NCBI GenBank assembly: GCA_017620375.1
Contig: JAFZQN010000080.1
Location: forward strand, 8,130-72,129
Length of the DNA stretch: 64,000 bases
Reading direction: 5' to 3'
DNA from: Lachnospiraceae bacterium
GTDB lineage: Bacteria; Bacillota; Clostridia; Lachnospirales; Lachnospiraceae
Shown: positions 3,518-64,000 of the stretch, piece by piece
How positions within the stretch are numbered: the stretch's first letter is position 1
How the letters are laid out: each line of letters opens with the position of its first letter
Made by a program: the position numbers and the translations under genes
Notes under the pieces: model-generated
Databases searched by the model: none
Told to the model about the DNA's origin: nothing
What the model saw: the letters and a program-made list of their open reading frames with translations, nothing else

Positions 3518-6500
3518 TTATGCAAAGTATTTAGCGGCAGCCTTGAACATATTGATCTCGTAGTTACCTGCTACGTTCTTGTACAGACCCTTATCGTAAC
3601 GCTCGCTGTGGCCCATCTTACCGAAGATCCTACCGTCGGGAGAGGTGATACCCTCGATAGCGAATGCTGAATTGTTCGGGTTGAAGAGGATGTCCGAAGT
3701 AGGTGTGCCTGTAAGGTCTACGTACTGGGTAGCGATCTGTCCGTTAGCGGCAAGCTTTCTGATCTGAGCTTCATCACAGAAGAAGCGGCCCTCACCATGT
3801 GAGATTGCTACATTATATACATCACCGATCTTGGTATCGGCAAGCCAAGGTGACTTTGTTGAACATACGCGGGTTCTTACTATCTTAGACTGGTGACGTC
3901 CGATGGTATTGAACGTAAGTGTTGCGCTGTTTTCATCGGTCTCGATGATGTGTCCGTAAGGCAGCAGGCCTGACTTTAATAATGCCTGGAAGCCGTTACA
4001 GATACCGCACATAAGTCCGTCGTTCTTGTAAAGTAAGTTCTCAACTGCCTCAGTAACCTTAGGATTACGAAGGAATGCGATGATGAACTTAGCTGATCCG
4101 TCAGGCTCGTCTCCGCCGGAGAAACCGCCGGGAAGGAAGATTGCCTGTGCATCCTTAGCTGCATTTGCAAAGTAGTTAACAGAATCGGTGATAGCGTCAG
4201 CTGTTAAGTTCTTGATAACGATGATCTCGGGATCAAAGCCGGCATCCCTTGAAGCCTTTGCGGAATCAAACTCGCAGTTTGTTCCGGGGAATGCAGGGAT
4301 AAGAATCTTAGGCTTAGCATTATTAAGTGCGGGGCCGTTATAGCTGATTCTTTCAACGTTCTCGTTGTAATCAAATTTCTCGTAAGCTTTCTTTTCTACA
4401 GAAGCTGTTTCCATAGGAAATACTTTCTCAAGCTTTCCGTTGTAAACCTTAAGCAGATCCACAAGCTCTAATTTCTCTGTGCCAAAGAAGATTGCTTCTT
4501 CTTCCTCTGTACGACCCAGGATCTTTGCATTTTCTGTGAGATCGGAAAGAAGACCCTTTCTCTCTAATGCATCACTTACTTCTATAATAAATGAACCATA
4601 ACTGTAGGAGAAGATATCGTCTTCTGTTACGGAGTCGGCGTATCTGAAGCCGATGCTGTTACCGAAGCACATCTTCATAACAGCTTCAGCTATACCGCCG
4701 ATACCGGGTGTGTACATAGCCTTGATACCGCTGAGCTGGTTGCATTTTTCAATGATAGCGAAGTTCTTCTTCATGGAATCCGGAGTAGGGATGCCATGCT
4801 TATCTCTCTCGGGCTCTAAAAGGTATACGTTGTTAAGTGCAGCCTTGAATTCGGGTGAGATGATGTTGCCGATCTTGGTGGTGGTAACTGCAAAGCTTAC
4901 AAGTGTGGGCGGAACATCAAGCTTTTCGAAGGAACCGCTCATGGAGTCTTTTCCGCCGATGGCAGCAGCTTCATAGTCAAGCTGAGCCTTTAATGCGCCA
5001 AGGAGTGCACATAAGGGCTTGCCCCAGCGCTTGCTTTCCTTCATGGGCTTCTCAAAGAACTCCTGGAAGGTTAAGTAGATGTCCTTATACTTAGCACCGG
5101 TAGCGATAAGCTTAGCGATCGACTCAGCTACTGCAAGGTAAGCTCCGTGATAAGGGGACTTTTCTGTAATGAAAGGATTGTAGCCCCATGACATAAGTGA
5201 ACAGGTATCGGTATGCTTCTTTTCAACGGAGATCTTCTGAACCATAGCCTGGATAGGTGTTATCTGGTTCTTTCCGCCGAAAGGCATAAGTACTGTGCCT
5301 GCACCGATGGTGGAGTCAAATCTTTCGGATAAGCCCTGCTTTGAGCAGACATTAAGGTCGCCGGCAAGGGTGTTATATTTTTCCTTGAAGCTTAACTTTG
5401 AAGGATCCGCAGTTAAGTCAACAGGTGTAATAGCGGGATTGGTAAGACTCTCCTTTGTATAGAGAGGATAGGTCTTTTCAAAATCTGCTGCAGAAGCTGT
5501 CTCAATATCGATATGCTTCTCTGCGCCGTTTGAATTAAGGAATTCTCTGGAGATATCAACGATGGTTGCATCATTCCAGTGCATTCTTAAGCGCTTCTCT
5601 TCGGTAACCACAGCTACCTTTGTAGCCTCAAGGTTCTCTTTTGCACAGAGCTCCATGAACTTATCCATATCTTCAGCGGCTACGACTACAGCCATACGCT
5701 CCTGGGATTCAGAAATGGCAAGCTCTGTTCCGTCAAGACCGTCATATTTCTTGGGTACTGCGTTAAGGTTGATATCAAGACCGTCTGCTAATTCTCCGAT
5801 AGCTACGGATACTCCGCCGGCACCGAAGTCATTACAACGCTTGATAAGACGGGATGCGGTTTCGTTTCTGAAAAGTCTCTGAAGCTTTCTTTCCTCGGGA
5901 GCATTACCCTTCTGAACCTCAGCACCGCAGGTGGTAAGGGACTCTAAAGTATGCTTCTTTGAAGAACCAGTAGCTCCGCCACAGCCGTCACGACCGGTAC
6001 GGCCGCCAAGCAGGATAACGATATCGCCGGGCTCGGGACACTCACGACGTACGCATCTTTCGGGAGCGGCTGCGATAACAGCACCGATCTCCATACGCTT
6101 TGCCTGATAGCCGTCATGGTAGAGCTCGTCTACGATACCTGTAGCCAGACCGATCTGGTTACCGTATGAGCTGTATCCTGCTGCCGCAGTATATGTAAGC
6201 TTTCTCTGGGGAAGTTTACCGGAAAGTGTCTCGCTGATAGGTCTTAAGGGGTTCGAAGCACCGGTCACACGCATAGCACCGTATACATAGGAACGACCCG
6301 AGAGCGGATCACGGATAGCACCGCCGATACATGTAGCGGCACCACCGAAAGGCTCTATCTCGGTAGGATGGTTATGTGTTTCATTCTTAAATAAAAGGAG
6401 CCATTTCTCGGTCTCGCCGTCTACATCAACGTCGATCTTAACTGTACATGCATTGATCTCATCGGACTCGTCAAGCTTTGAGAGCTTACCCTTAGCCTTT

Positions 6501-57572: not shown

Positions 57573-59213
57573 TTATAGATCGTTTATTATTTCGTTTGTG
57601 GTTTCCTCGAGGTCTACATTCAGGTAGCGTTTATTTATCCCGAGTTCTTCTAGCTTGTCGTCGGAAAAATCTTCTTCATCCGCAAGGAATCTTCTGCAAA
57701 GCTCCGCATATTTCGGTGAATGCTGCTTTCTTTCGCGTTCGACGGCGCGGGAAAGGCGCAGACCTGTCTCTACTTCTATATATATCGGCAAAACTCTGTC
57801 TTTTCCAAAGTATTTTTGGAGATTCTTATAACCTTCGGGAGTCATGATGAGAAGATAATCGTTTTCATAAAGGTCGATCTGACCGTCATCCGCGGTAAAA
57901 TAATACCAGTCGCCATGTATGGTGTGATAGCATCTGTATTCTATGACCTTGTCCTCGTCCCGCATCTTCTCAAATCCGGGTACGGTTACAAAATGATACT
58001 CCACGCCGTCGGTTTCACCATCCCTTATCGGGCGGGTGGTGTAGGAGACTATGGTCTTAAACCTGTCACCGGTCTTTTCAAGGATTTTCTTATATATAGT
58101 ATCCTTACCCGAGGAACTTTTCCCCATTATGCAATATATTTTCCCTTTTATTAACTCTTTAAGTGCTTTTATGAGCACATTGGCTGCTTTTTCGTGCTCC
58201 GATTCTAACGGATGGTAATTGGCTCCGTAGCCTGCTTTCGGATCCTGCTCCGGAAGATGGACGGTAGTAATGCGGCAGTCCCCGGTACTTTCCGAGTAGG
58301 TTTTTACCGCATCGCATATGGTGGGGTAGAGTCTGTCGCCCATCAGACCGAAAGCGCAGACGATATATGCTTTTTCATTGTACTTTCTTACAGTCTTAAG
58401 GAACTTTATATATTCCGAAGCGTACCAGGCCTGTTTTTCCTTATCGTCCTGGCAGTAGCTGTCATCATTGGTGCCTAAGTTAAGCACTACGATGTCGGGT
58501 ACATATTTTGTAAAGTCCCATTTGATATCCTGGGACTTGGGTATCCCCTCCAGTTTATCATAGCTAAGTCCCATGGATTCATAAAAATCAGGGATGAGCT
58601 GGTCAGCATGTCTTTCCGCCGGATCGGGGGTATATCCCGAGATGATACCGTATCCGCTGATGGAGAACATGCTGTGGTCCGCGTCTAGAGCTTTGGCAGT
58701 CTTGTATGCAAAGGCTCTTGTTACATTCTCCGTACCTGTCTTAAAGTCATGTAAAGGATCCGGATCTTCTACACCGTAACCGCAGGTGATGGAGTCGCCG
58801 ATAAACTCGATCTTTAAAGACTTATCGGGGGTGGGCTTTACGGTATCACCTTCCGATACCTCCAAAGGTTTGATACCTACCAGTGACATGGCGCATTCGG
58901 AAAGCTTAAGTACGCGTATGACAGAACTTTCTCTACCCGGCAGGATAGCATCTCCCATATGAACGGTAAGCTCTTGTTGGTTAAGCAGGAAATCCTTAAT
59001 TATCATCCCATCCACGTATATGGCGATACGGGCATAGTTGACATCATTGTTTTCTGATGCTGCTGCCTCTCCGCCTATGAACGTGATATCAAAGGCCTTT
59101 CCCGTATATTCAAACTCTATGCCTGAGCCCGAAAGTGACAGGAGCAGGGTATCATCAAAAAGCATCGATCTTCCGATCAGTTTAACATTTTTATCTGTCA
59201 GTTCTATCCTCAT
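57573..59213 (-). CDS. Fusion protein: CE2-like N-terminal domain + SGNH/GDSL esterase + C-terminal guanylate-kinase-like domain
   Basis: 'EFIGDSITCGYG' (SGNH block I), then 'IMGKSSSGKDTIY...VSYTTRPIRDGETDGVEYHFV' (Gmk-like). Start uncertain: ATG at 59213 or the track start at 59240. Confidence 0.6.
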   Translation of the reverse strand: MRIELTDKNVKLIGRSMLFDDTLLLSLSGSGIEFEYTGKAFDITFIGGEAAASENNDVNYARIAIYVDGMIIKDFLLNQQELTVHMGDAILPGRESSVIRVLKLSECAMSLVGIKPLEVSEGDTVKPTPDKSLKIEFIGDSITCGYGVEDPDPLHDFKTGTENVTRAFAYKTAKALDADHSMFSISGYGIISGYTPDPAERHADQLIPDFYESMGLSYDKLEGIPKSQDIKWDFTKYVPDIVVLNLGTNDDSYCQDDKEKQAWYASEYIKFLKTVRKYNEKAYIVCAFGLMGDRLYPTICDAVKTYSESTGDCRITTVHLPEQDPKAGYGANYHPLESEHEKAANVLIKALKELIKGKIYCIMGKSSSGKDTIYKKILEKTGDRFKTIVSYTTRPIRDGETDGVEYHFVTVPGFEKMRDEDKVIEYRCYHTIHGDWYYFTADDGQIDLYENDYLLIMTPEGYKNLQKYFGKDRVLPIYIEVETGLRLSRAVERERKQHSPKYAELCRRFLADEEDFSDDKLEELGINKRYLNVDLEETTNEIINDL

Positions 59214-59400
59214 AATCCACCGCCGCATAATTACAAACATTCTTCTGATTATATCTTATCATAAAAGGGGTGGTATTACAACAAAATTAAAAACTTACCG
59301 ATGTGCGTAAAAAGTAGTTGATTGAAAGACAAAAAAATGATATTTTTAAAAAAGTTAAAGATTTTTCTGAAGGAATAGATCGGTCACAGGAGATACAGGT

Positions 59401-60666
59401 ATGTCAGACGTTTTTATCAGTCACAGCTCGAAAGACAAGGAAATAGCCGACAAAGTTGTACAGTACTTTGAGGACAAAGGACTAAGCTGCTGGATATCAT
59501 CAAGGGATATAGTCCCCGGTGCTGAATGGGCAGCCGCCATAAGTACTGCGATCACAGCTTCAAAGGTTTTTTTGCTCATATATACGGAAAACAGTGCGGC
59601 CTCCGAGCAGGTAGTCAGGGAAGTCAGTCTTGCGGAGCACAAAAAAGGTGTTTATGTAGTGCCGTATAAGACCGATGAGACACCGCTCAAGGGTTCGTTT
59701 GAATACTACCTTTCGGCTTCCCATTTCATATATGCCGATTATTCACAAAATGAATATAAGCTTGAAGAACTGTATGATTTCGTAGCGGGCATAGTCGGAA
59801 AGAATATCAGGAATATAACAAACAATACATATATAGATAATGTCGAAAACCTGAACATTAAAGCTTCAGGGAATCTGTCGGAAGGGGTATCTAAAAAACT
59901 ACCGTTGTACATAGGTGTGGTAGCGGCCATAGTAGCGGTTATAGTGATACTTATCCTGTTGTTAAACCACGGAAATGAAGATGAGCCTAAGGGTGATAAA
60001 CTCACCCAGACCCCGCCGGCTACAGAAGCGGTTACACCCACCACGGATGTAAGCGAGCCTACAGCTACACCGGATCCTACCGTATCCCCCGAACCCTCTT
60101 CCTCTGACAAAAAGCCGGTATCATATGAAGGCAGTGAAACTCAGGTCGCTTTAATGACTTATATCAATACCTACGGCAACCATTTTGAAAATGATAAGGG
60201 AGAATATTATTCGATAAAGCATTCGTACGGGCCCGTGACAATCACCAGGAACGGGGAAGAAAGGACCATAGAAAACTCGAGGATATACCTTACTTCAAGA
60301 TATGAGACTTCGGCAGAACCGGATACGCCGCTGGAGCTCGGGGTATATAACGGAGACCTTCTTCTAAACGTATGGCTGTACTATAATATCAAAACCAAAG
60401 GTTATGAGCTGGATGCATACGAGGATGAAGAAAAAGGCAGAAGTAAAGGTGTTATAAAGGTTAAACTTAACGATAGCTTTACCGGAAAGATCGCGGAAGA
60501 AGATATTTATGAATATAATGGATCCGGTTGGTTCGAAAAGGATGAGTTTATCGCTAACGTGGAGGATCTTTTAACGGTACTTCTTAAAGGTCTGGAAACC
60601 GATTTAGAGGACATGGATAATGAGGTATCGTTAGATACTCTCGGACTCGGCAATATAATAAAATGA
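59401..60666 (+). CDS. TIR-domain protein: N-terminal TIR, single TM, Pro/Thr-rich linker, unknown outer domain
   Basis: 421 aa with 'DVFISHSSKDKEIADKV...SCWISSRDIVPGAEW...SAASEQVVREVSLAE', TM 'LPLYIGVVAAIVAVIVILILLL' and linker 'TQTPPATEAVTPTTDVSEPTATPDPTVSPEP'. Confidence 0.8.
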   Translation: MSDVFISHSSKDKEIADKVVQYFEDKGLSCWISSRDIVPGAEWAAAISTAITASKVFLLIYTENSAASEQVVREVSLAEHKKGVYVVPYKTDETPLKGSFEYYLSASHFIYADYSQNEYKLEELYDFVAGIVGKNIRNITNNTYIDNVENLNIKASGNLSEGVSKKLPLYIGVVAAIVAVIVILILLLNHGNEDEPKGDKLTQTPPATEAVTPTTDVSEPTATPDPTVSPEPSSSDKKPVSYEGSETQVALMTYINTYGNHFENDKGEYYSIKHSYGPVTITRNGEERTIENSRIYLTSRYETSAEPDTPLELGVYNGDLLLNVWLYYNIKTKGYELDAYEDEEKGRSKGVIKVKLNDSFTGKIAEEDIYEYNGSGWFEKDEFIANVEDLLTVLLKGLETDLEDMDNEVSLDTLGLGNIIK

Positions 60667-60676
60667 CGCAGAAACG

Positions 60677-60706
60677 GCCCTTCCCGTAGTGGGGAGGGCT
60701 TTTCCT
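60677..60706 (+). terminator. Rho-independent terminator between the two TIR genes
   Basis: gcccttccc-gtagt-ggggagggc followed by TTTTC. Confidence 0.6.
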
Positions 60707-60720
60707 GTTCGAGAAAAAAA

Positions 60721-60749
60721 TTGACGAAAAATCGTTATGATGTTAAAAT
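60721..60749 (+). promoter_or_regulatory. Promoter candidate for the second TIR gene
   Basis: TTGACG, 17-nt spacer, TAAAAT. Confidence 0.5.
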
Positions 60750-60788: not shown

Positions 60789-62687
60789 ATGGCAGACGTT
60801 TTTATCAGCCACAGTTCTAAGGATAAGGAGATAGCTGAAAAAGTACTTAACTACTTTGAGGAAAGAGGCCTTAGCTGTTGGATAGCTCCGAGGGATATAG
60901 TACCCGGGACGGAGTGGGCAGCGGCCATAAATGCAGCTATTACCGCGTCAAAAGTATTTTTGATCATATATACTGCAAACAGTGCAGGATCAAGCCAGGT
61001 TTCAAGGGAGATCAGTCTCGCCGAAACAAAACCCGGTGTTTTTGTCGTGCCTTATAAGACGGATGATACACCTCTTGTTGGTTCTTTTGAGTATTATCTG
61101 GTAGGATCCCATTTTATCTCGGCTGATTATGCGAAAAAAGATTATAAACTGGAAGAACTGTATACCCATGTGACCGATATAGTGGGAGGCGCCGAGCCGC
61201 AGCCTGAATGGAATCCTCCTGTTAAAGAAGAGATGCCGGTTAAGGTATCGGAACCTATTATTACTACAGTAGAGACCGGTGACGGATCGAAACAGAACCC
61301 GGAATATGACAGGACCAAGCTTCCACTGATAATAGGTATAGCAGCTGCCGCAGTCGTAGTGATCGTGATAGTCCTTATCATCGTGCTGGGACCTCGGAGT
61401 GAGGATGAAGACGGATCCGAAGGTAATCTGACCGCGGAAAATCCCACATCTGTTGAAACTGAACCGACCGGCACAGATATAGTTACACCGACCATAACTC
61501 CGGACGAACAGACACCTACACCGGTTGAAATAACACCTACGCCGGATGATCCCACTCCCACAGACATCCCGACAGAGGTGCCCTTAGAACAGAAAGAGAT
61601 AAAAGACCTTAATATACAGTTTTTGTCCCATGACTGTACCGGTGATTACAAAGGATATGTTAACGGATCGGGAGAGCCTGAAGGAGAAGGAACTTTTATC
61701 GGTTCGTTTTATGTGGATTATTCGGAAGTCCGTATGACTTATGTCGGTCTGTTTGAAAACGGTATCGCAAACGGCAAAGGTGTATCGACAGAGACTTTTG
61801 TGGACGGATATGTAAGAGAATACGAGGGTGATTTTGTTAACGGTGTATTTGAAGGAGAAGGCACTGAGAGAAGTACTTCGGTAGCCGGTGACAGGATCGA
61901 ATATATAGGTGAGTTTAAGGACGGAAAATATAACGGTAAAGGTATTAAGACCTGTAACAATAAAACGGATAATATTGTAAAACAGGTATATGACGGAACC
62001 TGGGAAGACGGAGTGTTCAAGGGAGAGAACAATACTTATACCCTCACATACTGGGACGGAAAAACGGAAATAACAGAAGGAAAGTTCGACGGAGATCTGA
62101 TCTCGGGGACTAAGACCGTATATGATGCAGACGGGAATATGATCCTGCACGAAAACTTCAAAGAGAAGAACGCCAAGGAAGTATTGTATGAATACTTAAA
62201 AGAACATGGAACCTATTATCCGGACGAAGCCTGTTATTATATAGAAAACACGTATTATGAGTTGTCCTCAAAGATACTTGATACGGAAGTAACAGTATAT
62301 GATACTAAGGTCCGGCTCAATGTTTCCTCGTCTGAAGGCAGTAAATATCCTTTAAAGTTTTATATATTTAATGATCAGCTTAATATGAAGATCCTGATAT
62401 ATTATGACAACACCGAGGAAGAGTATTATATTGAGGCTTCGGAACGGGGATATGACGGAACATATAATGTTGTCATAATGGGATCATTAAAAGACTACCT
62501 CAACGGACCGGTTGATGTCCTGTTTAATATCCCCTCTGAGCGATACAGCAGGGATGAGGTTGCGGAATATACAGGTCTTATGGTTGATCTATTGTATTGG
62601 AAGCTCACAGAGATGTTAGAAGTGATGGACAATGATGTGACACTTGGAACATTGGGACTTGGTTACTGGGAAGATTTCCAAGATTAA
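60789..62687 (+). CDS. TIR-domain protein paralog: TIR, single TM, Pro/Thr-rich linker, MORN-like repeats, then the C-terminal domain shared with the first paralog
   Basis: 'DVFISHSSKDKEIAEKV...SCWIAPRDIVPGTEW...SAGSSQVSREISLAE'. MORN-like 'YVGLFENGIANGKG...YEGDFVNGVFEGEG...YIGEFKDGKYNGKG'. I take the ATG at 60789, with the same 'cacaggaga.acagg' leader as the first paralog. Confidence 0.8.
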   Translation: MADVFISHSSKDKEIAEKVLNYFEERGLSCWIAPRDIVPGTEWAAAINAAITASKVFLIIYTANSAGSSQVSREISLAETKPGVFVVPYKTDDTPLVGSFEYYLVGSHFISADYAKKDYKLEELYTHVTDIVGGAEPQPEWNPPVKEEMPVKVSEPIITTVETGDGSKQNPEYDRTKLPLIIGIAAAAVVVIVIVLIIVLGPRSEDEDGSEGNLTAENPTSVETEPTGTDIVTPTITPDEQTPTPVEITPTPDDPTPTDIPTEVPLEQKEIKDLNIQFLSHDCTGDYKGYVNGSGEPEGEGTFIGSFYVDYSEVRMTYVGLFENGIANGKGVSTETFVDGYVREYEGDFVNGVFEGEGTERSTSVAGDRIEYIGEFKDGKYNGKGIKTCNNKTDNIVKQVYDGTWEDGVFKGENNTYTLTYWDGKTEITEGKFDGDLISGTKTVYDADGNMILHENFKEKNAKEVLYEYLKEHGTYYPDEACYYIENTYYELSSKILDTEVTVYDTKVRLNVSSSEGSKYPLKFYIFNDQLNMKILIYYDNTEEEYYIEASERGYDGTYNVVIMGSLKDYLNGPVDVLFNIPSERYSRDEVAEYTGLMVDLLYWKLTEMLEVMDNDVTLGTLGLGYWEDFQD

Positions 62688-62704
62688 TAGGGAAGCGGGA
62701 GATT

Positions 62705-64000
62705 ATGAATAAAAAACGCGTAATACAGATAATAGTATCGATAGTGGCATTTTATCTTATACTTATGCTGCTGCTTTTTGCAGTGGAGTCGATCCCGAAG
62801 GATAATCCCAGCAGCATAGACAGTCTTGGGGACGCTGCATGGTATGTGCTTGCCACACTTACGACCGTCGGCTACGGAGATGTTACGCCCGTATCCTTCC
62901 CGGGTAAGGTGATCGGTGCGATCATGATGATATCCAGTGCAGGAGTACTTACATTCCTGCTCGGTCTGGTATTTACCGTACTTTTCGGAAGGCTGCTCCC
63001 GACATTTACTCTGTGGAGATATCGGAAAAAGGACTGGTATGTATTCTCATCGGTCGATGAGAGGAGTCAGCTTTTGGCAGAAGGGCTCTCTAAGGATGAT
63101 CCGAATGCCGCGTACATATTCTGCGGGAGCGAAGAGAACCTTTCCCAGGAGCATTATCCTGCCATGAAATACCATGTGATAACCGATACTCCCATGGAAG
63201 TGGTGATTAAAAAACAGGATCCTGCCGGAAAATGCTTTCTTTTCTTAGTAACGGAAAACAAGTGGGAAAACTATAATATAGGAAACAGTCTTCTTAACAA
63301 GATGAACAGGGAGAACCTCAAGGTCTACTGCGAAGCGGATCATACACCTGATCGTATGTCACATGCGCTTACTGTATTTAATAAGCCGGACTGTATCGCC
63401 AGAAAATACTGGAACGACAATCCTTTAAATATGGGTGAATCCGGTATAATCCTGATAGGTGACGGCAAGATTGCTCAAAAGCTCCTTGAAAGAGGCCTGC
63501 TCATAAATGTATTTCCTCCCGAGCAGACAATAGAATACCATGTATTCGGTGACTGGGATAATTTCAGGCATGATCACTACGAGCTGGAAAATATCGTAGG
63601 CATAAACGGACTTCTTCCGGATGATGACGGGATATTCTTTGAGAGTAAACCGTGGAATGCATCGGCTGAGCTTCTAAGAAGCGCATCACGTATCATAATA
63701 TGTGCGGATGACGAGGATAAAAATATATCGGTAGTGGAAGAACTTAAGGCGTTTTTCCCGACGAAGGCACGTATAGATGTATATACCGATGGGACGGATG
63801 AGTCCTTCAGGAGCTTTGGCGGGGATACGGGCATATTTACGAGAGAGATCGTTATGCATGAAAAGCTTAACCGTGTGGCGAGGATGCTTAACGAGATATA
63901 CCGTACAAAAACAGGGAGCGGACCTGCTTGGAACGAGCTTTCCGAGTTTAAGAGACAGTCCAATATAGCTGCTGCGGACCATATGCTGACAAAGATCAGG
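62705..64000 (+). CDS. K+ channel (TVGYGD filter) fused to a Rossmann-like (RCK/TrkA-N-like) region and a C-terminal RyR-like region; 3' end beyond the window
   Basis: Not in the ORF track (edge-truncated). My translation from the ATG at 62705 gives MNKKRVIQIIVSIVAFYLILMLLLFAVE...AAWYVLATLTTVGYGDVTP...IILIGDGKIAQKLLERG...WNELSEFKRQSNIAAADHMLTKIR, open for all 432 codons. Confidence 0.75.
   Translation, partial: MNKKRVIQIIVSIVAFYLILMLLLFAVESIPKDNPSSIDSLGDAAWYVLATLTTVGYGDVTPVSFPGKVIGAIMMISSAGVLTFLLGLVFTVLFGRLLPTFTLWRYRKKDWYVFSSVDERSQLLAEGLSKDDPNAAYIFCGSEENLSQEHYPAMKYHVITDTPMEVVIKKQDPAGKCFLFLVTENKWENYNIGNSLLNKMNRENLKVYCEADHTPDRMSHALTVFNKPDCIARKYWNDNPLNMGESGIILIGDGKIAQKLLERGLLINVFPPEQTIEYHVFGDWDNFRHDHYELENIVGINGLLPDDDGIFFESKPWNASAELLRSASRIIICADDEDKNISVVEELKAFFPTKARIDVYTDGTDESFRSFGGDTGIFTREIVMHEKLNRVARMLNEIYRTKTGSGPAWNELSEFKRQSNIAAADHMLTKIR

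Follow-up and report, generated by a model that had tools for sequence, protein, structure and literature searches.

A candidate TIR second-messenger module with an RyR-domain K+ channel in a rumen Lachnospiraceae bacterium

The 64,000-nucleotide (nt) stretch of DNA analysed here (hereafter the window; contig JAFZQN010000080.1, positions 8,130 to 72,129) comes from a rumen Lachnospiraceae bacterium and ends inside a K+ channel gene, directly 5' of which lie two genes for membrane-anchored TIR proteins, TIR1 and TIR2. The best-supported reading of this cluster is a four-gene TIR second-messenger module, composed of TIR1, TIR2, the K+ channel, and a 617-residue (617-aa) paralogue of the channel encoded just outside the window; we give a probability of roughly 0.55 to its being a Thoeris-like system in which the TIR product gates RyR-domain channels. 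TIR1 and TIR2 would be single-pass membrane proteins, with the TIR domain facing inward and a variable, fast-evolving domain (of the MORN type in TIR2) facing outward. Once triggered, the TIR domain would convert NAD+ to an ADP-ribose-derived nucleotide, for example an isomer of cyclic ADP-ribose (cADPR); this would be bound by a two-repeat RyR (Repeat12-like, R12) module, located behind a tandem-RCK ring on both the channel and its pore-loop paralogue, and binding would alter the gating of the K+-selective pore and with it K+ flux and membrane potential. The observations that argue for such a module are the protein architectures, the operon-like gene junctions, the conservation of the TIR glutamate and of the RyR His/Trp/His residues, and the repeated occurrence of TIR genes beside RyR genes. 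We infer that TIR2 is an active signal synthase whose product is bound by the RyR module of the channel; any direction assigned to the gating, and any purpose given to the system (defence against phages, or outside-in signalling of another kind), would be presumptive in the same way.

Architecture of the TIR proteins, the channel and its paralogue

TIR1 (59401-60666, plus strand; 421 aa) and TIR2 (60789-62687, plus strand; 632 aa) both carry a TIR domain of about 130 aa, which scores far above the cut-off of 28 bits for Pfam TIR_2 (PF13676; 76.8 bits, E 2.5e-21 for TIR1; 68.6 bits, E 9e-19 for TIR2). In TIR1 the N-terminal TIR domain precedes a single transmembrane (TM) helix, placed at about aa 168-190 from the hydropathy of the near-identical copy in the conspecific locus L001; a Pro/Thr-rich linker then leads to an extracytoplasmic C-terminal domain. 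TIR2, whose start codon was assigned from orthologues (MADVFISHSS), has its TIR domain at aa 1-134 and beyond it a TM helix near aa 178-200 (nt ~61320-61390), a linker of Pro/Thr type, MORN repeats (Pfam MORN, E 5e-12), and a C-terminal domain. Because of this order of N-terminal TIR, one hydrophobic helix, linker, and C-terminal domain, the TIR domain should be cytoplasmic in both proteins and the variable part should lie outside the cell. As a full-length TIR2 profile matched only MORN4 in the PDB, a broader alignment of the TIR domain was used; here E74 of TIR2 is invariant in 16 diverse relatives and aligns with the glutamate of the WxxxE motif of TIR-STING, Cat1, and TLR6, the Trp of this motif being replaced by Gln or Val in the TIR2 family. 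In PADLOC the TIR proteins matched only generic ThsB-like models, and the NCBIfam matches, to K-channel and TIR models, were all weak and generic.

The TIR2 family is large and mostly found in Lachnospiraceae (among P0121-P0240); its members have an N-terminal TIR domain, one TM helix, and a variable ectodomain of the MORN, LRR_5/LRR_8, FGE-sulfatase, or NPCBM-associated type, a topology that resembles that of Toll-like receptors with the order reversed. A comparison of 61190-62687 of the window with L004:2593-4494, from a related species, shows that the ectodomain of TIR2 itself diverges much faster than its TIR domain and faster than the channel: blastn aligns the TIR domain at 88% and the channel at 81% and leaves the ectodomain unaligned, and protein identity is 85% for the channel and about 56-62% for TIR2.

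The channel gene (62705-64000, plus strand) is truncated by the window edge, leaving codons 1-432 of 524; its full length is represented by a conspecific orthologue of 524 aa (P0001), 99% identical to the window channel. The two-TM pore domain (62744-62983, plus strand; aa 14-93) scores 43.3 bits against Ion_trans_2 (E 3e-11; cut-off 22.5) and contains the canonical TVGYGD filter recognised in a first-pass annotation of the window, at aa 54-59 (62864-62881); T54-D59 are invariant in 29 homologues, and the profile of the channel family matches KvAP and KcsA with E 5e-21. In the AlphaFold model of P0001 (pLDDT 88.5) the two-TM pore is followed by two Rossmann folds, a helical region, and an RyR repeat. 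The tandem Rossmann (RCK-like) domains, assigned from AlphaFold and Foldseek, correspond to 63026-63830 (plus strand), and the GxGxxA segment that the same annotation had described as Rossmann-like (GDGKIA, aa 252-257, 63458-63475) does lie inside the second of these folds. In a Foldseek search with the model the best match is GsuK, a tandem-RCK K+ channel (E 6.5e-8), with further matches to the TrkA ring, to Slo channels including Slo1, and to two-repeat RyR Repeat12 domains. By protein search, the channel belongs to a family of proteins of about 520 aa, mainly from metagenome-assembled genomes of Lachnospiraceae, which forms about 420 clusters (50% identity, E <= 1e-30) and in which most members have a precomputed PF02026 (RyR) match.

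The stop codon of TIR2 (TAA, 62685-62687) and the ATG of the channel (62705-62707), both read directly from the sequence, are separated by a spacer of 17 nt (62688-62704, plus strand; TAGGGAAGCGGGAGATT), which includes a GGGAG at 62697-62701 and no hairpin; the first-pass description of this junction, as a 17-nt gap with a ribosome-binding site and no hairpin, is thus accurate in its coordinates and its content. A consensus scan found no terminator-like site at the junction, the RNA fold of 62630-62760 is not stable above shuffles (z +0.53), and promoter-like hexamers in the 3' end of TIR2, at 18 against 11.7 +/- 3.5 in shuffles, were counted as not commoner. Because the 17-nt gap lacks a terminator or stable fold and the hexamers are not in excess, co-transcription of TIR2 and the channel is a reasonable if provisional reading of the sequence; in L001-L004 and L173, too, the two genes lie 17 nt apart. 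Between the stop of TIR1 at 60666 and the ATG of TIR2 at 60789 there is, as had also been reported, a terminator-like hairpin (60676-60700, plus strand; 11 pairs, 7 of them GC, followed by a T-rich tail; TTTCCTGTTC), and 5' of TIR2 there is a promoter-like site (60721-60749, plus strand; TTGACG/17/TAAAAT with a TG extension, 10 of 12 matches), which is a match to consensus only.

Over its final 10 kb the window is matched colinearly, at 98.8% nt identity, by the conspecific locus L173, which therefore reveals how the locus continues past the window end. Here, as in L001, also conspecific, and in L002-L004, the channel stop is followed after a gap of 1 nt by the partner gene (L173:13493-15346; L001:5689-7542), to which the first-pass annotation was blind, since it lies outside the window. 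Its product of 617 aa (614-618 aa in L001, L173, and L002-L004) has no Pfam match; the N-terminus contains a TM segment and a pore-helix-like segment without a K+ filter, followed by two Rossmann domains and an RyR-type end. As BLASTP between channel and partner is weak (E 0.003), their kinship was examined by profile comparison, which matches the partner to the channel over residues 88-507 (E 5e-24) and to the TrkA_N-RyR family over 513 columns (99.7%, E 9e-26); judged by its profile, the partner is a paralogue of the channel. It is also the commonest neighbour of the channel, ahead of TIR (L001-L010, L017, L018, and L021).

The C-terminal RyR module and its TIR neighbours

The RyR (Repeat12-like) module of the channel starts within the window at 63857-64000 (plus strand) with a degenerate first repeat (HEKLNRVARMLNEIY...WNELSEFKRQSNIAAADHMLTKIR), whereas the canonical second repeat (aa 458-524) falls outside it; the domain is cut by the window edge, as the first-pass annotation had stated. 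Of the three Pfam models with which that annotation had proposed to search the channel, Ion_trans_2 scores; TrkA_N gives no score for the channel (window protein and P0001) and does score on related TIR-linked proteins; and RyR (PF02026) reaches 26.5 bits on residues 471-512 of P0001, past the window edge, just below its cut-off of 27.4. The homologue P0022 exceeds this cut-off with 33.1 bits, and a profile of the C-terminal module, built from channel-family members, TIR-linked RyR proteins, and the partner, matches all four repeats of RyR1 (E 3e-34).

The segment in which an RyR signature had originally been seen (aa 408-425; WNELSEFKRQSNIAAADH) lies 5' of the canonical repeat and, taken alone, has no RyR score. 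Its counterpart by homology in the TrkA_N-RyR proteins is their first half-module (hhalign 95.7%, E 1e-8), which in turn is a shortened RyR repeat (hhalign 97.9%, E 3e-13 against the canonical repeat); compared directly by hhalign, the first half-module of the channel does not match its own RyR repeat significantly (E 0.11). The homology of the first repeat is detectable only transitively, via the TrkA_N-RyR family, and by this route the original call was right, the segment being the degenerate first of two repeats. Because these hhalign links connect it to the canonical repeat, the C-terminus of the channel is, on profile evidence, an R12-like module with both repeats in one chain; the Foldseek alignments to two-repeat R12 structures (6uhi, 9ls7, 9l9b) span about 170-190 columns, and the R12 matches include RyR3 R12 bound to ADP/dantrolene.

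Within this module the His and Trp of the EHxRW motif (H471, W474) are invariant in the channel family and H496 is nearly so; the three residues occupy the EHxRW and HP positions that RyR repeats have in common, and the channel also retains the acidic residues of the LDD motif. The RyR/R12 domains for which the literature records binding of cADPR isomers or adenine nucleotides are those of phage and animal homologues. According to two preprints of 2026, RyR domains of phages bind 2'/3'cADPR and cADPR with nanomolar affinity, the residues reported to contact the ligand including a His/Trp pair and one more His (PMC13232231; 10.64898/2026.06.04.730250); the RyR Tad sponge has a dissociation constant of 43 nM for 3'cADPR and makes contacts through H129/W132, K147/H154, and K170/D171 (10.64898/2026.06.04.730250). 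The contact residues of channel and phage proteins correspond by motif position, not by direct alignment.

TIR genes adjoin the channel in several forms. In L001-L004 and L173 a TIR-MORN gene lies 5' of the channel; in L017 (35% identity) the gene directly 5' encodes a TIR_2-PT-LRR_5/LRR_8-DUF285 protein; and in L018 a TIR_2/ThsB_TIR-Sel1 gene lies directly 3' of the partner (domains by Pfam). Since L017, L018, and the lineage with the MORN-type TIR2 carry different TIR genes, three independent lineages of the channel and partner abut different, non-orthologous TIR genes.

The co-occurrence of TIR-TM with RyR genes, proposed earlier as a check, is also seen outside the channel family. A metagenome scan seeded with TIR2 orthologues gave 80 loci from soils, sediments, and guts, mostly with distant TIR2-like TIRs; as a control served 68 loci (1.1 Mb) that had been fetched for an unrelated reason from genome contigs by a generic TVGYGD pattern (a scan that returned 80 loci, only 12 of them true members of the channel family). 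Searched with a hidden Markov model of the C-terminal module, 12/80 of the TIR2-like loci contain an open reading frame (ORF) with an RyR module, against 0/68 of the controls; the 12 represent about nine distinct lineages, and in 9 of them the RyR-module ORF lies <=100 nt from a TIR ORF. By Pfam, these RyR ORFs are either TM-TrkA_N-RyR proteins (~600 aa) or AAA-RyRx2 proteins (~900 aa). The TIR ORFs of the metagenome loci mostly have the layout seen in the window, an N-terminal TIR followed by one TM helix (74/89), and often occur as 2-5 tandem paralogues. Approached from the RyR side, three of five TrkA_N-RyR family members on long contigs (L170, L171, L172, L176, L178) have adjacent TIR genes scored by Pfam: L171 with two TIR genes and an AAA-RyRx2 gene, L172 with a TIR-TPR gene and a RelA_SpoT-TPR-LSDAT(SLOG)-RyR gene, and L176 with a 1227-aa protein with an N-terminal TIR encoded directly 5' of the TrkA_N-RyR gene. 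L170 has WD40 and WD40-RyRx2 genes and no TIR, and L178 has a DUF4062 gene beside the TrkA_N-RyR gene; DUF4062 was tried as a TIR and rejected, and such neighbours, in L178 and on the Arcobacter plasmid described below, are not counted as TIR, because hhalign of the TIR profile against the L178 protein was negative.

The TrkA_N-RyR protein of L171, modelled with AlphaFold (pLDDT 83), matches GsuK with the pore region included (E 7e-12) and two-repeat R12 domains with a TMt of 0.61-0.68, ADP/dantrolene complexes among them. TrkA_N-RyR proteins have a K+-channel-like layout of M1, pore-helix, loop, and M2 (consensus; residues ~26-119 of P0319), in which a conserved LQLFxLExGxxxxPxPWE loop replaces TVGYG. 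RyR repeats are further fused to AAA ATPase, WD40, and RelA_SpoT-TPR-LSDAT(SLOG) domains in TIR neighbourhoods of other phyla (fusion genes at L105:1754-4414, L106:12722-15583, L171:3714-6362, L170:3424-6111, and L172:8778-11255), which suggests, as far as domain composition goes, that RyR is a modular sensor with several outputs.

Other genes recur at these loci. A small gene (203-234 aa), without a significant Pfam match, lies directly 5' of the TrkA_N-RyR gene in three unrelated loci (L170:6156-6860, L171:6384-7001, L178:6343-6954), and in soil-metagenome contigs (L108, L109, and L112; ~4550-6380, minus strand) an ORF for a membrane protein of ~600 aa sits between the TM-TrkA_N-RyR gene and 3-5 tandem TIR-TM genes. 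On Arcobacter plasmid CP146529.1 (L184, 41484-55852) NAD-binding, RyR-domain, and DUF4062 genes form a related module flanked by a type I restriction system and by integrase and recombinase/transposase genes, in the manner of a defence island. In the window, 57573-59240 (minus strand) holds a single ORF of 555 aa, a GDSL/CE2-type lipase-esterase fused to a guanylate kinase, which in the related L004 is two separate genes (356 aa and 199 aa). An origin of the cluster by horizontal transfer or from a plasmid was considered and rejected: GC content is uniform and the sole plasmid match is to a distant C-terminal module.

Alternatives to the proposed TIR-gated channel

A number of observations weigh against a signalling link between the TIR proteins and the channel, and give credibility to the main rival explanation, that the genes are incidental neighbours. 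The channel and its 617-aa paralogue would then be an RCK/RyR-regulated K+ pair that senses adenine nucleotides or NAD(H) for K+ homeostasis, with TIR-TM genes inserted 5' and read through; we regard this as possible, if somewhat doubtful. Adjacency without function is credible because most channel homologues lack a TIR, the surroundings of the cluster do not look like a defence island, and TIR-TM paralogues are so numerous in Lachnospiraceae that a chance meeting of the genes becomes more likely. Within 10 kb of the channel, most homologues are without a TIR, including five lineages that have both channel and partner (L005, L006/7, L008/9, L010, and L021): no TIR was found in L005-L009 (channels 61%, 50%, and 47% identical) by precomputed Pfam, nor by a broad TIR model in L010 and L021 or in eight loci with a solo channel (L011-L016, L019, and L020). 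The genes around the cluster are housekeeping and two-component genes, GC content is even across the locus, and TIR1 is absent from the related-species locus L004, evidence of gene gain at this site. As the RCK domains of GsuK bind NAD+/ADP and R12 domains bind ATP/ADP (PDB entry titles), the channel could by analogy sense ordinary metabolites. In the metagenome scan, 68/80 TIR2-like loci are RyR-less within the captured DNA, many of the contigs being short, and none of the channel, its partner, and six further RyR proteins is matched by a PADLOC model. Mere adjacency would not readily account for the different, non-orthologous TIR genes that abut the pair in three independent lineages, for the enrichment of RyR genes beside TIRs in other phyla (12/80 against 0/68), for the membership of the partner in the same family as the TIR-linked TrkA_N-RyR proteins, or for the 17-nt spacing kept between species that are ~81% identical at the nt level. 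The TIR-signal-gated channel put forward in the first-pass annotation has therefore fared unevenly: recurrent TIR-RyR adjacency and the binding of cADPR isomers by phage RyR domains speak for it, and the conserved neighbourhood whose lack was to count against it is not found among orthologues, most of which have no TIR nearby.

Two further explanations accept a link of another kind. RyR modules could remove the TIR signal, as a glycosidase like the phage protein RyDEP or as a sponge, and so set a threshold or end signalling, with the effector located elsewhere; or the TIR could deplete NAD+ and the RCK/RyR channel report the fall. Among the phage proteins, RyDEP acts as a glycosidase and has a His/Asp dyad, and others are sponges (PMC13232231); the EHxRW His and the LDD acidic residues are retained in the channel; and the several RyR proteins often present in one locus (L171, L172, L170) could reflect buffering. 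We nevertheless hold this to be improbable: the RyR modules are fused to output-type domains (K+ pore, AAA ATPase, RelA_SpoT with SLOG), a layout of the sensor-effector type and unlike free sponges, and only one tested phage homologue is catalytic (PMC13232231). It seems more improbable still that the TIR-TM proteins are non-enzymatic, acting as surface or adhesion proteins or as scaffolds whose TIR domain contacts the cytoplasmic ring of the channel. The MORN, LRR, Sel1, and DUF285 repeats of the ectodomains are typical of surface-binding proteins, and animal TIR domains do act as scaffolds; against this, the catalytic-motif glutamate is invariant across the 16 diverse members, and the recurring partner domain is a nucleotide-binding R12 module and not a second TIR.

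If the cluster is indeed a Thoeris-like system with TIR-gated RyR channels, Thoeris-like signalling would gain a new class of sensor, with a selective K+ channel as its output. TIR-derived nucleotides are an immune language common to bacteria, plants, and animals, for which known receptor domains are still few. The phage RyR sponges and glycosidases that act against Thoeris would become explicable as a captured host sensor, and the membrane-anchored TIRs with their fast-evolving ectodomains would be a first hint of bacterial outside-in TIR signalling. More tentatively, the module might correspond in bacteria to the animal TIR/cADPR-ryanodine receptor axis, and might even be what that axis evolved from. 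It would then be one member of a widespread, unnamed class of TIR signalling in which, in other phyla, the RyR sensor also serves AAA ATPase, WD40, and RelA_SpoT-SLOG as outputs; membrane receptors built like Toll-like receptors, with a variable ectodomain, one TM helix, and a cytoplasmic TIR, would here make a cyclic ADP-ribose-type messenger, and a channel-fused Repeat12 would read it directly. A channel of 524 aa with one R12 module would then offer a tractable bacterial model for the debated direct action of cADPR on ryanodine receptors.

Comparison with known systems

The closest precedent for a TIR-controlled channel is Thoeris type X, one of 29 putative Thoeris types listed by Yirmiya et al., in which a TIR protein (ThsB) is paired with an effector described as an 'ion channel' (ThsK); the type is validated as anti-phage in Bacillus sp. 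BH32, with the signal molecule unknown (10.64898/2025.12.03.692087). The first-pass annotation had not recognised the cluster as a described system; this stands for cellular TIR-RyR systems, of which no earlier description was found in the literature searched, papers on conflict systems included, and not for the pairing of TIR and ion channel, which is known from type X and is shared by the cluster. The TIR of type X belongs to another clade (cluster 2598792572, type II/VII/X), the Bacillus sp. BH32 TIR giving a hhalign probability of only 7.8% against the TIR2-type profile. In the text and tables of the source that were searched, its TIR domains are of ~140 aa (Table S1) with no membrane anchor or ectodomain described, neither RyR nor TrkA is mentioned, and there is no mention of an RCK domain or of a second RyR-bearing paralogue, the channels being compared here by description (10.64898/2025.12.03.692087). 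A tblastn search of plasmids with the B. cereus Q1 type X TIR returned 10 records; the five inspected contain no ion channel and are either type II Thoeris (with a macro-domain gene adjacent in four) or have no annotated effector gene.

With the phage proteins RyDEP and RyR Tad the cluster has in common the PF02026/Repeat12 fold and the positions of the EHxRW, HP, and KDR-type motifs. RyDEP proteins bind the 2'cADPR and 3'cADPR made by Thoeris TIRs and cleave or sequester them (Lopez Rivera et al., PMC13232231); these phage proteins are small, soluble, and viral, form dimers from one repeat, and counter the host by cleaving or sequestering its signal, whereas in the cluster two repeats per chain form the end of cellular membrane proteins encoded beside TIR genes. 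Channels of the GsuK/MthK/TrkA type resemble the channel described here in that a TVGYGD-bearing two-TM K+ pore precedes tandem Rossmann RCK domains; they have neither an RyR module nor TIR neighbours, and the RCK region of the present channel is too diverged for Pfam TrkA_N.

Animal ryanodine receptors carry a homologous Repeat12 domain (see the RyR1 match above) on a cation channel, as here, but are six-TM Ca2+ release channels of 5000 aa, in place of which the cluster has a two-TM K+ pore. Animals also possess, in SARM1, a TIR-type enzyme that makes cADPR; we know of no work that establishes direct binding of cADPR to the R12 domain of animal ryanodine receptors.

Thoeris I, II, and V-VII and the membrane effectors of CBASS and Pycsar combine, as would the cluster, a nucleotide-synthesising sensor with a ligand-binding and often membrane-acting effector. 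Their sensor domains are SLOG, Macro, DUF2270, DUF6650, SLATT, and SAVED, not RyR, and their effectors, in the prevailing view, breach membranes and do not form a selective K+ pore. The cluster fits the general Thoeris layout, with a TIR gene in an operon-like array (junctions of 17 nt and 1 nt) with an R12-bearing candidate effector; what distinguishes it is the combination of an RyR sensor, a selective K+ pore, a paired paralogue, and receptors of TIR-TM-ectodomain architecture, which appears new within TIR signalling systems.

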